Assembly: GCA_000004985.1 (NCBI GenBank)
Contig: GG738862.1
Strand: one strand, 5' to 3'
DNA length: 64,000 nt
From: Naegleria gruberi
Lineage: Eukaryota
Below the pieces are notes generated by a model that was not told the origin of the DNA, did not search any database, and worked only from the letters and a program-made list of their open reading frames with translations. Both the position numbers and the translations under genes were made by a program. This document shows positions 27,053 to 30,106 of this stretch, in pieces (the stretch's first letter is position 1; each line of letters begins with the position of its first letter).

Positions 27053-30000
27053 ATGACTGCTGGCTCCTCCTCTCTATTGTCGTTCCTATTTCTATTTGTG
27101 ATTTGCTGTTCTCTAATTCACCAATTGAGTGCACTTTCTTTTAACAATATTTCAACAATTGTTGGAGGAGGAAGTTTTATTGGTGATGGGTTGATTTCAA
27201 CCAATGCCTTGCTGAACTATCCATCTGGTATGGCCATGTATAATGGTGATTTATTAATTGCCGATTCGTTTAATCACAGAATTCGAAAGGTTTCGTTTTC
27301 AAGTAGTGGCGTTATTTCAACAATTGCTGGTATTGGTTCTTCATCATTTAGTGGTGATGGCGGTTTGGCAATTAATGCAGAGTTGAATTTTCCAAGTGGT
27401 GTTGCTGTTCATTCTAATGGTGATGTCTATATTGCAGATAAGTCTAATCATGTTATTAGAAAGGTTTCGGCTCTCAATGGAAAGATCACAACAATTGCTG
27501 GAATTGCAGGTGAAACTGAATTGAACAAGTACAGTAACTCATTAGCAACAAATACCACACTGAATTCTCCACAATATCTTGCCGTCAATTCTTCAACTGC
27601 AGAAGTCATCATTTCAGATACAAATAACAATGTTATTCGAAAGGTCTATCTTAATGGAACTATTGTAACAATTGCTGGAGTTTATGGAAGTTCTGGATAC
27701 TCTGGTGATAATGGCAATGCAGTTTCTGCCAAACTCTTCAATCCAAAGGGAATAATCATCAACTCAATTGGTGAAATTATTTTTGCTGATTCTAGAAATC
27801 ACAGAATTAGAAAGATTTCTACAAATGGAAAGATTACAACAATTGCAGGAACTGGAACTGCAGGATTGAGTGGGGATGGTGGTTTGGCTACAAGTGCCAA
27901 ATTGAATTATCCAAATAGTGTTGCATTGGGTTTGAATAATGAGATTTTGATTGTTGACACTTTGAATCATCGAATTAGAAAACTATTCTCAAATGGAACA
28001 ATTATTTCAATTGCTGGGAATGGAACTACTCAAGGTTTTTCTGGAGATGGTGGTAATGCTTTGAATGCCTTGTTAAATTTACCAAATGATGTTGTAATGA
28101 CATTGAATGGTGAATATTTCATTTCTGATTTTGGTAATCATAGAATTAGAAAGGTTTCCAATAGTGGAATAATTTCAACCATTGTTGGTACTTCAAATTT
28201 TGGAAATATCATTCAAGGAGGAAGTGCTTACGTCCTCCCAACTGGCAATCCAATTATTTATTCCACTAAATATCTTGCATTTGCTGACATGAGAGGAAAA
28301 ATCAGTCAAATTGACTTGACAACAAGGATTGTTTCATCTGTAATTTCAGCTCCTCTTCCTTCTGCAGTTGGTTATAAAAGCAAACTTCATGCCATGTATC
28401 TTGATTCCTTTTTAGGAAGTTTAGCAACCAAGATTACAGTGGTTGCTGGAACAGGAAAATTGGGAGGATATGCTGGAGATGGTGGCTTGGCTACAAGTGC
28501 CAGAATTCAAAAACCAACTTCAGTAGTGTTGAATGATCAAAATCTCTATATTGTTGACACTCTGAATCATAGAATTAGAAAGGTTTCATTGACATTTGGC
28601 AACATTACAACAATTGCTGGAATTGGAACTGCAGGCTTTTCTGGAGATGGTGGTTTGGCTACAAAGGCTAAATTGAATTATCCTACACATATGGCTATCA
28701 GTGCAAGTGGAGAAATTTTCATTTCTGATAATGGAAATCAAAGAATTCGTAAAATTGCGACAAATGGAAAGATTTCAACAATTGCTGGAAATGGAATTGT
28801 TGGATTTAGTGGTGATAATGGATTGGCTACTAAAGCTACTTTCAATTCACGAAATGGTATTGCAGTTGCTTCGAATGGTGATGTGTATGTTGCTGATACT
28901 AGAAATCATCGTATTAGAAAGATTTCAGTTTCGAATGGTTTCATTTCAACATTTGCAGGAAATGGTTCAGTGGCCTATCAAGCTACATTTGGTGGAGATG
29001 GAGGATTGGCTGTTAGTGCCAAGTTAAACCTTCCATACTCTGTTGCAATTAATAATGCAACTAATGAGGTCTATATTACTGATTCTGGTAATCATAGAAT
29101 TCGAAAGGTTTCTACCAGTGGAATTATTTCCACTATTGTAGGAACAGGAAGTGCAGGATTTTCTGGAGATTCTGGGTTAGCCATTAATGCTAAACTCAAT
29201 TTACCATACTCTATTTCAATTAATGCATTGGGAGAACTTTTTATTTCTGATCAACTCAACCAAAGAATTCGTAAGGTTTCCACTACAAATTATATCACAA
29301 CCATTGGTGGAAATGGTGGTATAGGTTTTAACGGTGATGGGTTATCAGCCACAAGCACTCAATTGAAATATCCATTTGGAATTTCAGCTAGCTCCACTGA
29401 GGTTTATTTTGCCGATTCTCTAAATAGTAGAGTTAGAAAGATTTCCAATGGAAAAATTACAACAATTGCTGGAGGAATTGGTGATGGTTTAGCAGCTACA
29501 AGTGCGTATCTCAATTCCAACTCTTTCACAACTACTCCGAGTGGCGAATTCATTATTGCCGATTCAAACAACAATCTTATTCGAAAGATTTCAACAAGTG
29601 GTATAATTTCAACCATTGCTGGAACTGGAGCTGCCACTTTTGGAGGAGACAATGCAAATGCCACCATTGCTAAACTGAATAATCCATTAAATGTTGCAGT
29701 GAGTTCGAGTGGTGAAATCTTCATTGCCGACACCAACAACCATAGAATTCGAAAAATTTTCCTCAATGGCACCATTACAACCATTGCAGGTAATGGAACT
29801 GCAGGATATAGTGGCGATGGATTAGATTCAACCAAATGTCAACTTAACTATCCAAGTGCTGTAGCCGTTAGCTCAGGAGGGGAAATCTTTATTGTTGATA
29901 CACATAATCATAGAATTAGAAAAATTGCAATTGACGGAATAATCTCAACTATTGCAGGTAATGGAATTGCGGGATTTAATGGAGATGGAAAATTACCCAT

Positions 30001-30106
30001 CAATACTCAATTGAATTATCCAACAGGAATTGTGATTGCATCGAGTGGTGAGGCATATATTTCTGAAGAAGGAAATAGGAGAATTAGAAAGATTTATCTT
30101 CAATAA
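27053..30106 (+). CDS. Secreted NHL-repeat protein with about 17 NHL blades (probably three 6-bladed beta-propellers), about 1,018 aa
   Basis: Signal peptide MTAGSSSLLSFLFLFVICCSL. Repeating unit of about 55 aa ends in N(H/Q)RIRK(V/I)S…ISTIAG(T/N)G…GFSGDGGLA. 16-17 copies counted by eye. Confidence 0.8.
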   Translation: MTAGSSSLLSFLFLFVICCSLIHQLSALSFNNISTIVGGGSFIGDGLISTNALLNYPSGMAMYNGDLLIADSFNHRIRKVSFSSSGVISTIAGIGSSSFSGDGGLAINAELNFPSGVAVHSNGDVYIADKSNHVIRKVSALNGKITTIAGIAGETELNKYSNSLATNTTLNSPQYLAVNSSTAEVIISDTNNNVIRKVYLNGTIVTIAGVYGSSGYSGDNGNAVSAKLFNPKGIIINSIGEIIFADSRNHRIRKISTNGKITTIAGTGTAGLSGDGGLATSAKLNYPNSVALGLNNEILIVDTLNHRIRKLFSNGTIISIAGNGTTQGFSGDGGNALNALLNLPNDVVMTLNGEYFISDFGNHRIRKVSNSGIISTIVGTSNFGNIIQGGSAYVLPTGNPIIYSTKYLAFADMRGKISQIDLTTRIVSSVISAPLPSAVGYKSKLHAMYLDSFLGSLATKITVVAGTGKLGGYAGDGGLATSARIQKPTSVVLNDQNLYIVDTLNHRIRKVSLTFGNITTIAGIGTAGFSGDGGLATKAKLNYPTHMAISASGEIFISDNGNQRIRKIATNGKISTIAGNGIVGFSGDNGLATKATFNSRNGIAVASNGDVYVADTRNHRIRKISVSNGFISTFAGNGSVAYQATFGGDGGLAVSAKLNLPYSVAINNATNEVYITDSGNHRIRKVSTSGIISTIVGTGSAGFSGDSGLAINAKLNLPYSISINALGELFISDQLNQRIRKVSTTNYITTIGGNGGIGFNGDGLSATSTQLKYPFGISASSTEVYFADSLNSRVRKISNGKITTIAGGIGDGLAATSAYLNSNSFTTTPSGEFIIADSNNNLIRKISTSGIISTIAGTGAATFGGDNANATIAKLNNPLNVAVSSSGEIFIADTNNHRIRKIFLNGTITTIAGNGTAGYSGDGLDSTKCQLNYPSAVAVSSGGEIFIVDTHNHRIRKIAIDGIISTIAGNGIAGFNGDGKLPINTQLNYPTGIVIASSGEAYISEEGNRRIRKIYLQ

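Follow-up and report, generated by a model that had tools for sequence, protein, structure and literature searches.

An old array of 17 NHL blades in a native Naegleria gruberi gene, predicted to form a soluble, secreted triple propeller

Introduction

What kind of protein is made by a gene of Naegleria gruberi that encodes almost nothing but NHL repeats, and does the regularity of these repeats mean that they arose recently or came from a bacterium? The question is posed by gene 1, which lies within a 64,000-nucleotide stretch of contig GG738862.1 (hereafter the window). A sequence-only reading of the window had seen in gene 1 a secreted array of NHL blades, had attributed the likeness of the blades to recent amplification, gene conversion or a bacterial-like origin, and had pointed to a second gene nearby in which NHL blades are combined with EGF modules. 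Here we show that gene 1 is native and that its array is old and stable, and we consider it likely that its product is a soluble secreted triple NHL propeller, serving, as we predict, as a multivalent binding scaffold.

Results

Gene 1 is a single open reading frame without introns (27053..30106 on the plus strand, stop codon included), with a product of 1017 residues; the protein of about 1,018 residues noticed earlier is thus real. The product is identical, residue for residue, to N. gruberi EFC45612.1 (XP_002678356.1, D2VC86), which is NAEGRDRAFT_66482 of N. gruberi NEG-M and is annotated only as 'predicted protein'; exact-sequence look-up, by which this was established, assigns the adjoining genes to N. 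gruberi NEG-M as well. A search of the literature for Naegleria together with NHL repeats, teneurin or the gene accession numbers returned nothing relevant, and gene 1 appears in no paper: it is already catalogued but unstudied. It belongs to a class that is known, and within that class it is unexceptional.

The scaffold is 502 kb long, and gene 1 lies on it between eukaryotic genes, namely those for a protein kinase, an RGS protein, a DUF4116 protein and an intron-containing tRNA, the last of which begins 56 nt 3' of gene 1. Codon usage and GC3 had been suggested as a check for horizontal transfer. The codon usage of gene 1 (GC3 0.215) correlates with that of the neighbouring genes at 0.975, a value that no other gene in the window reaches; composition is fully native, and therefore gives no sign of recent transfer. 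High-scoring bacterial matches (described below) are what could suggest either a recent acquisition from a bacterium or bacterial contamination of the assembly, and we reject both as extremely improbable, given the eukaryotic surroundings on a long N. gruberi scaffold, the most host-like codons in the window, a eukaryote-type signal peptide, a paralogue in the same genome and a spliceosomal intron in the related gene 2. Gene 1 is real and belongs to the nuclear genome of N. gruberi, to which it is native.

Both Pfam models of the NHL repeat recognise the product far above their cut-offs (NHL, PF01436, E=1.1e-84, 274.9 bits against a cut-off of 20; TEN_NHL, PF25021, E=2e-84, 284.1 bits against 27.1). 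Cutting the sequence at the N-H-R-I-R-K anchor gives unit lengths of 51, 58, 60, 57, 56, 57, 143, 57, 56, 62, 56, 55, 49, 56, 56 and 56 residues, with 16 canonical blades (in units of 49–62 residues) that follow the consensus ITTIAG / GDGG / P.GVAV / IYIAD / NHRIRK. The unit of 143 residues (368–510; 28154..28582, plus strand) is composite, comprising a degenerate blade 7 (368–424), a remnant of blade 8 of about 30 residues (425–454) and a canonical blade 9 (455–510). The total is thus 17 blades, one of them degenerate, plus the vestige of another, in agreement with the 'about 17' estimated before. Blades 1–6 (residues 29–367; 27137..28153, plus strand) are proposed to form the first propeller, as suggested by unit parsing, by the high-pLDDT strands at 34–368 in the structure model and by the superposition of known NHL propellers, while blades 10–18 (residues 511–1013; 28583..30091, plus strand), together with blades 7–9, would form the second and third, according to the parsing and the AlphaFold2 model.

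The array is preceded by a signal peptide (residues 1–28, MTAGSSSLLSFLFLFVICCSLIHQLSAL; 27053..27136, plus strand; putative cleavage site), which is modelled as a helix at residues 7–25 and is the only strongly hydrophobic segment found by hydropathy analysis, consistent with the secretion proposed for this protein from its sequence. The stop codon comes right after the last blade, and there are 12 N-x-S/T sequons in the chain. The combination of a signal peptide with at least 12 NHL blades in one chain is that of the bacterial-type multi-propeller proteins, and gene 1 has it. The premise that NHL domains normally form a single propeller does not hold, as many of the best 120 matches to gene 1 carry 12–20 blade anchors.

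The AlphaFold2 model (mean pLDDT 83) contains 17 sets of four strands and bears out the earlier estimate that there are enough blades for three propellers. It opens with a lone D strand (residues 34–38) and closes on a C strand (RIRKIYLQ), which would fit ring closure by an earlier D strand. The six-bladed NHL propellers of SOQ1 (7djj) and NHLRC2 (6g7w) superpose on the model with TM-scores of 0.83–0.84 and an rmsd of 2.3–2.6 Å (Foldseek), each superposition spanning about one third of the chain. By strand counting we infer a 6+6+6 partition of the blades into three rings. A possible alternative is 6+5+6 with a linker, since residues 430–474 are modelled with low confidence (pLDDT below 50). 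In the 18-blade bacterial homologues two full blades are aligned to Naegleria blade 7 and the remnant. To our knowledge, neither a structure nor a functional study of a triple NHL propeller exists.

The closest homologue of gene 1 is NAEGRDRAFT_53411 (D2VZ49, P0003 in our set), a collinear paralogue 58% identical to it. We had considered whether this protein could be an orthologue from another Naegleria species, and this is ruled out, as both the window and P0003 are from N. gruberi. The unit lengths of P0003 (49, 55, 58, 55, 56, 56, 143, 55, 56, 61, 57, 56, 50, 56, 56 and 56 residues) reproduce the idiosyncrasies of gene 1: there are again 16 anchors, a 143-residue composite unit with a truncated blade 8, a short unit 13 and a long unit 10. 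Blades in the same position of the two proteins are 61% identical, compared with 51% for other pairs, and this diagonal signal is significant in a permutation test (p=0.0005). The degenerate middle segment (83 residues) finds a full-length match only in P0003 among 1.84 billion representative proteins (exhaustive HMMER), whereas a word-indexed protein search with a 94-residue middle segment found no match, too few exact 5-mers being in common. A host-lineage homologue with the same repeat number, which the sequence-only reading had named as evidence against its own proposal, thus exists, and it shares the unusual unit lengths as well. The two paralogues differ at the C-terminus, where P0003 has about 85 additional residues. 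These make up a short linker with Cys, a stalk rich in Ser, Thr and Pro, and a hydrophobic C-terminus, and P0003 is therefore presumably anchored at the cell surface. Such a tail was sought downstream of gene 1 by tblastn and not found; with the tRNA gene only 56 nt away there is no space for a tail exon.

Regular repeats invite the conclusion that they multiplied recently or are kept alike by ongoing gene conversion, as had been proposed for this gene. The regularity itself is real, as the blades are about 50% identical at the amino-acid level, but it is a trait of the family (63% in a bacterial homologue) and not evidence of recency. Self-comparison of the DNA points the other way: no two blades are more than 74% identical and the mean is 60%, the longest word that blades share is 19 nt, and Tandem Repeats Finder detects no array in gene 1. 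Low identity at the DNA level is the other outcome that the sequence-only reading had named as counting against its proposal. Adjacent blades are no more similar than distant ones, and a period-6 super-repeat, the expected sign of triplication of a whole propeller, was sought and not found. At identical residues the same codon is used across blades with a frequency of 0.569, compared with 0.508 expected from codon usage. This excess (about 5.5 SD) is slight, so that synonymous codons are almost randomised, and it could reflect a weak remaining trace of shared ancestry or very old conversion; it is, with the protein-level regularity, what speaks for recent homogenisation. Considering in addition that a paralogue only 58% identical retains the blade order and unit lengths, with blades tending to match their positional counterparts, we find recent amplification or ongoing conversion highly improbable. 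Low DNA identity, the lack of a detectable array, almost randomised codons and the matching paralogue together mean that the array is old and is not being homogenised. The array of gene 1 is old and stable.

A bacterial origin is a separate question. There are thousands of bacterial secreted proteins with 12–20 NHL blades, some of them more regular than gene 1. A protein search for bacterial best hits gave a mixed answer, since the closest protein is the Naegleria paralogue, while the named matches from outside Naegleria among the best 120 are all bacterial (Myxococcota, Bacteroidota, Acidobacteriota, Elusimicrobia and others). Many of these bacterial matches are 35–42% identical over 95–99% of gene 1, although repeat number inflates the bit scores of repeat proteins and most of the metagenome entries among the matches come without taxonomy. 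P0004 (from MAG GCA_026994735.1; an 18-blade protein of 1108 residues that starts with a signal peptide and is encoded on a bacterial contig among bacterial neighbours) is 42% identical to gene 1, and the N. fowleri paralogue P0091 (39%) is no closer. The best match of gene 1 in the PDB by sequence is also bacterial, the teneurin-like protein 9ifo (E=5e-70 for the teneurin-type group). Gene 1 and the bacterial multi-propeller proteins (P0004, and the T9SS-tailed P0025 and P0079 of Bacteroidota) have in common the signal peptide, an array of 12–20 blades and the teneurin/PknD-type consensus ITTVAG-GDGG-P.GVAVD-NLYIAD-N.RIRKV. The bacterial arrays differ in often carrying additional Ig, Big, fn3 or T9SS domains and in having intact blades 7 and 8.

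These likenesses would be explained if an entire 18-blade gene was gained long ago from a bacterium and then duplicated, with some copies becoming fused to EGF, stalk or anchor modules. Against this, there is no compositional trace, no bacterial match to the degenerate middle segment, and no correspondence in register between the blades of gene 1 and those of P0004 (permutation p=0.43), a result that lends no support to homology over the whole array. If there was a transfer, it must have been an ancient one. On the sequence similarities such an origin is possible, and we would put its chances somewhat below even; since it concerns origin only, it is compatible with the soluble secreted propeller protein proposed here.

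The second NHL+EGF gene of the window (gene 2) is also real. It is encoded on the minus strand (50941..48042), some 18 kb downstream of gene 1, and consists of exon 1 (50382..50941), with the signal peptide and the first of the divergent NHL-like blades, a 56-nt intron read from the sequence (50326..50381; GTAAGT...TACTAAT...AG), which restores the frame, and exon 2 (48042..50325, stop codon included), encoding further NHL-like blades, a Cys-rich EGF region, a C-terminal region and a hydrophobic tail. The spliced product is in frame, has 947 residues and apparently has no entry in the reference protein set. It is 29% identical to gene 1 (tblastn, E=1e-17). Its Pfam matches are weak but above the curated cut-offs (TEN_NHL 33.5, EGF_Teneurin 29.0 and EGF_2 26.3 bits), with two EGF-like modules in a Cys-rich region containing 16 cysteines (residues 691–801; 48483..48815). 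About 10 divergent NHL-like blades are visible in a poor AlphaFold2 model (pLDDT 52.9), and the total is probably about 12. The 'TM anchor' described earlier corresponds to a hydrophobic stretch that is indeed present (residues 930–947; 48045..48098; modelled helix 933–946). It ends the protein with no cytoplasmic tail, however, and so resembles a GPI-attachment signal more closely than a helix that crosses the membrane; the hydropathy pattern, an N-terminal signal peptide plus a C-terminal hydrophobic tail, is compatible with a GPI-anchored surface protein.

Related proteins with NHL arrays, EGF modules and a TM helix are found in N. fowleri (P0091) and N. lovaniensis (P0121, C9374_000344), both 39% identical to gene 1, with P0121 26% identical to gene 2. 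They share with gene 2 the order of a long NHL array, EGF-like modules and then a membrane anchor, but have a true TM helix followed by a cytoplasmic tail where gene 2 has a bare hydrophobic tail, and the blades of gene 2 are far more divergent than theirs. Gene 1, in contrast, has neither EGF modules nor an anchor, and no orthologue of it from N. fowleri or N. lovaniensis is present among the top 120 matches.

Discussion

We propose that the product of gene 1 is soluble and secreted and probably carries N-glycans, and that its mature chain would consist only of three tandem six-bladed NHL propellers, built of 17 intact blades and the truncated eighth. The array is passed on as a fixed unit and already looked as it does now, with blade 8 truncated, when the duplication occurred which gave rise to P0003, and structural selection on the NHL consensus, as opposed to concerted evolution, would be what holds the blades about 50% alike. 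The attractive inference from regular repeats to recent amplification is thereby corrected: blades close to the NHL consensus can remain about 50% identical for very long by structural constraint alone.

What could such a protein do? By analogy with the usual role of NHL propellers, and as no enzyme family is clearly matched, the protein may act as a multivalent extracellular binding scaffold, with the propeller faces binding a ligand on prey bacteria, on the substrate or on the cell's own surface. The propellers could instead be enzymes of the lactonase/SGL-like, streptogramin-lyase-like, phytase-like or PAL-like kinds, since there is weak Pfam similarity to Vgb_lyase, Phytase-like and PhoX, and related metagenome proteins have been automatically named 'sugar lactone lactonase YvrE'. 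The scores for Vgb_lyase (31.8 bits, cut-off 50) and PhoX (16.1, cut-off 24) are, however, below threshold, that for Phytase-like (28.1, cut-off 27.6) is barely above it, and no single stretch passes on its own, each spanning only about 35–75 residues; they are generic propeller-blade similarity. The conserved positions, moreover, appear to be those of the structural NHL consensus in every blade, with no single constellation resembling an active site. An enzymatic function is in our opinion quite improbable, and the binding scaffold is the function that we favour.

As such, gene 1 would be the soluble counterpart of a surface-anchored Naegleria NHL(+EGF) family, with gene 2 as a divergent member. 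One can go further and suggest that soluble gene 1, stalk-anchored NAEGRDRAFT_53411 and the EGF-linked gene 2, P0091 and P0121 are lineage-specific receptors for recognition of prey or host cells, all descended from a bacterial 18-blade surface protein acquired long ago, independently of the bacterial origin of metazoan teneurins but parallel to it. We regard this wider scenario as speculative and on balance improbable. The importance of the findings is modest. They document in N. gruberi a small group of related extracellular NHL proteins with several propellers each, to which, outside the genus, bacterial proteins are the closest relatives; if it is true that this family mediates recognition of prey or host cells, this would be relevant to Naegleria biology, including that of the pathogenic N. 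fowleri.

How does this family compare with known propeller proteins? Teneurins have one NHL propeller per chain and are type II membrane proteins. The teneurins and bacterial teneurin-like proteins of known structure (9ifo/9pt5, 6fb3) share the NHL subtype with the window genes, and teneurins also have EGF modules, so that the earlier label 'teneurin-like' is correct as far as these two kinds of module go. Teneurins and their bacterial relatives are defined, though, by a superfold of FN-plug, NHL and YD-shell (PMC13018210). Neither gene 1 nor gene 2 has a Pfam match at E<=0.01 to YD/RHS, FN-plug, TTR or toxin (Tox-GHH) domains, and the label is to that extent overstated. The topology differs as well, since in teneurins the EGF modules are N-terminal to the single propeller, while in gene 2 they are C-terminal to about 12 blades, in a chain that begins with a signal peptide and ends in an anchor. 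That the two genes are teneurin homologues, a protist teneurin in pieces, could be argued from their best Pfam models (the teneurin-derived TEN_NHL and EGF_Teneurin) and from PDB sequence matches that include teneurins along with the bacterial protein, but with the defining domains absent and with two or three propellers in place of one this has next to no probability.

The nearest structural models for the individual propellers of gene 1 are the single NHL propellers of NHLRC2 (6g7w), SOQ1 (7djj) and the PknD sensor (1rwi) and the designed Pizza proteins, which have the same per-propeller fold; by sequence, the single propellers of known structure match gene 1 with E-values of 1e-27 to 1e-29. 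Unlike in gene 1, there is one propeller per chain in the solved proteins, joined to domains of other kinds (thioredoxin-like, kinase). In TRIM proteins the NHL domain binds RNA inside the cell, and TRIM-NHL proteins have RING, B-box and coiled-coil domains N-terminal to a single cytoplasmic propeller; gene 1 does not belong with them, having no RING or B-box match and possessing a signal peptide. In overall architecture a parallel is provided by the YWTD arrays of LRP4, LRP6 and LRP2, which appear among the multi-propeller structural matches and are likewise extracellular chains of six-bladed propellers, serving as platforms for ligand binding. Their propellers are made of YWTD/LDL-receptor class B repeats, are separated by EGF modules and are only 10–14% identical to gene 1, so the parallel is one of architecture only.

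Blade architecture of gene 1

Gene 1 (NAEGRDRAFT_66482) is one uninterrupted ORF of 1017 aa at 27053..30106 on the + strand, and the coordinates taken from the sequence alone are those of the reference gene model. An exact-sequence look-up identified its product as EFC45612.1 / XP_002678356.1 / UniProt D2VC86 from N. gruberi NEG-M, already deposited and annotated as 'predicted protein'; a literature search on the gene found no publication. The regular, many-bladed NHL protein noticed in the sequence-only reading was borne out both by Pfam (NHL, E=1.1e-84; TEN_NHL, E=2e-84) and by parsing into units. 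Other Pfam matches were mostly under the family cut-offs: among enzyme families, Vgb_lyase and PhoX fell below theirs and Phytase-like lay marginally above (28.1 versus 27.6 bits), with no stretch passing alone in any of them.

Splitting at the N-H-R-I-R-K anchor gave 16 canonical units of 49–62 aa each, and residues 368–510 form a 143-aa unit in which a degenerate blade 7 is followed by a ~30-aa remnant and then by a canonical blade. Since blade 7 and the remnant align with two full blades in 18-blade bacterial homologues, gene 1 follows an 18-blade design in which blade 8 is truncated. The AlphaFold2 model (mean pLDDT 83, from a 13-sequence alignment) contains 17 sets of four strands, preceded by a lone strand (residues 34–38), and a three-stranded set at the end, with low confidence limited to residues 381–391 and 430–474 and the N-terminus (1–44). 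The blades would partition 6+6+6 if the D strand preceding each ring (propeller) in sequence closes that ring. In Foldseek searches the solved six-bladed NHL propellers of NHLRC2 (6g7w) and SOQ1 (7djj) each match roughly a third of the model (TM 0.83–0.84), and the bacterial teneurin-like protein 9ifo and LRP-type receptors emerge as the multi-propeller analogues.

Apart from its N-terminal signal peptide the protein has no hydrophobic segment; the mature form, with a pI of 9.5, carries 12 N-x-S/T sequons and a single cysteine. The stop codon follows directly after the last blade, and a tRNA gene begins 56 nt past it, leaving no space for an exon that would encode a C-terminal anchor. On the basis of these secretory features, the general behaviour of NHL propellers and the absence of convincing enzyme-family matches, we take the product to be a binding scaffold: it would be soluble, glycosylated and multivalent, secreted by the amoeba as the free counterpart of the anchored NHL family members.

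Genomic neighbourhood

The scaffold is 502,116 bp long and four neighbouring ORFs in the window also match N. gruberi proteins exactly; together with the match of gene 1 this identifies the window as N. gruberi nuclear DNA. The surrounding genes are typically eukaryotic and include a protein kinase, an RGS protein, an AAA ATPase, a DUF4116 protein and five tRNA genes, one with an intron. Four of the tRNA genes lie on the − strand: Lys-CTT (1370–1444), Met (1563–1633), His-GTG (18715–18786) and Ala-TGC (51234–51307, ~300 nt upstream of the gene 2 start). The fifth, next to gene 1 (30163–30253, +; Rfam tRNA, 48.3 bits), carries an insertion of ~16 nt in the anticodon-loop region; ARAGORN did not name its anticodon, and by eye it reads as a putative tRNA-Leu(AAG) with a short intron.

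The DUF4116 protein (882 aa, 22187–24835, −; 18 repeats, E=3.6e-200) is a second long repeat protein adjoining the gene 1 locus. Immediately 5' of gene 1 and in the same orientation lies a 518-aa ORF (24939–26495, +) with a signal-peptide-like start (MRPLLFLVLLV...), a hydrophobic C-terminus and no match in a Pfam search, which may be another surface protein. Convergent with gene 1 is NAEGRDRAFT_57776 (310 aa, 30329–31261, −), likewise without a Pfam match, whose C-terminal half includes a hydrophobic stretch of ~60 residues rich in Gly, Ala and Ile.

Age of the blade array

The regularity of the repeats had suggested recent amplification or gene conversion. Both are refuted by the low DNA identity between blades and by a collinear paralogue in the same genome. 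Codon-aligned blades share on average 60% and at most 74% of their nucleotides, identity is no higher between adjacent than between distant blades, and the longest word common to two blades is 19 nt. Tandem Repeats Finder reported no array in the gene; a gap-free repeat finder recovered the 168-nt period at just 60–80% identity. Where two blades share a residue, they also share its codon with a frequency of 0.569, against 0.508 expected from codon usage (SD 0.011), so synonymous sites are close to randomised. A period-6 signal, as whole-propeller triplication would leave, was sought and not found. Regularity as such is a property of the family, as mean blade identity is 52% in the paralogue P0003 and 63% in the bacterial 18-blade protein P0004.

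P0003 (NAEGRDRAFT_53411), encoded on another scaffold, is the closest relative by identity among the best 120 matches (58% identity, 97% coverage). It has the identical 16 anchors and a nearly identical list of unit lengths: both proteins contain the composite unit of 143 aa, and in both unit 13 is short and unit 10 long. In addition P0003 carries a stalk rich in Ser and Thr and a hydrophobic anchor. Blades at the same position are 61% identical and other pairs 51% (collinear diagonal, permutation p=0.0005). The array, including the truncated blade 8, was therefore complete before this old duplication, and no homogenisation has followed. The N. gruberi protein P0206 (NAEGRDRAFT_54550, 296 aa), on a separate 59,947-bp scaffold, is 99% identical (289/292) to residues 1–292 of gene 1; it may be a haplotig or else a truncated copy of the 5' part of the gene that arose very recently.

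Origin of gene 1

A bacterial-like origin had also been raised. Relative synonymous codon usage of gene 1 correlates with that of the pooled neighbouring ORFs at 0.975, the top value in the window, and its GC3 of 0.215 lies at the AT-rich extreme of the host; the gene is thus native in composition and not recently foreign. Among the best 120 matches, all named high-scoring relatives outside Naegleria are bacterial, and many bacterial relatives cover 95–99% of gene 1 at 35–42% identity. P0004 (1108 aa, signal peptide, on a bacterial MAG contig) and the N. fowleri paralogue P0091 are equally close to it (42% and 39% identity). Two comparisons gave no support for a transfer: no blade-register signal was detected between gene 1 and P0004 (permutation, p=0.43), and among 1.84 billion representative proteins the degenerate middle segment has a full-length match only to P0003. 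A bacterial origin is possible only as an ancient event, in which the Naegleria lineage may plausibly have acquired an 18-blade gene. Many of the best 120 matches carry 12–20 blade anchors, so multi-propeller NHL proteins are commonplace, and the premise that NHL domains normally form one propeller fails outside the well-studied eukaryotic examples.

A second, spliced NHL–EGF gene

The second NHL and EGF gene proved real, with a TEN_NHL match, two EGF-like modules and in-frame splicing. Gene 2 consists of exon 1 (50941..50382, −) and exon 2 (50325..48042, −), separated by a 56-nt GTAAGT...AG intron whose removal restores the reading frame for a 947-aa product. The protein collection yielded no N. 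gruberi entry identical or nearly identical to this product, so the gene is apparently unannotated in the reference protein set, though the window is from the reference strain; its codon usage (r=0.957) and canonical intron argue that the gene is real. The top database match is the NHL-EGF-TM protein P0121 of N. lovaniensis (C9374_000344; 26% identity), and identity to gene 1 is 29% (tblastn, E=1e-17).

A signal peptide is followed by divergent NHL-like blades (TEN_NHL, 33.5 bits). An AlphaFold2 model of poor quality (pLDDT 52.9) shows about 10 of them, from which roughly 12 blades in two propellers are likely. Past the blades come a Cys-rich region that includes two EGF-like modules above Pfam cut-offs and then ~130 residues with no family match. 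The claimed TM anchor is a hydrophobic stretch at the extreme C-terminus and resembles a GPI-attachment signal more than it does a TM helix.

Comparison with known systems

Both genes are NHL-repeat superfamily members of the teneurin/PknD type. A superfold of FN-plug, NHL and YD-shell defines teneurins and their bacterial relatives (PMC13018210). Neither gene has Pfam matches to YD/RHS, FN-plug, TTR or toxin domains; teneurin identity was rejected on these grounds and the teneurin-like module content noted earlier is superficial. A TRIM-NHL identity was likewise rejected. Gene 1 had been catalogued already and belongs, as an uncharacterised member, to a known, widespread class.

By eye, P0121 contains, just before its TM helix (~residues 1290–1340), a candidate motif resembling a GPS autoproteolysis site (...CMYFDEIKKDWSLDG...CKTYHLTSFGIID).

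The closest true relatives of the two genes are the Naegleria paralogues and a set of uncharacterised multi-NHL proteins secreted by bacteria. Among the paralogues, P0003 is stalked and anchored, and P0091 and P0121 possess EGF modules together with a TM helix. LRP receptors, likewise chains of extracellular propellers, offer an architectural analogy.
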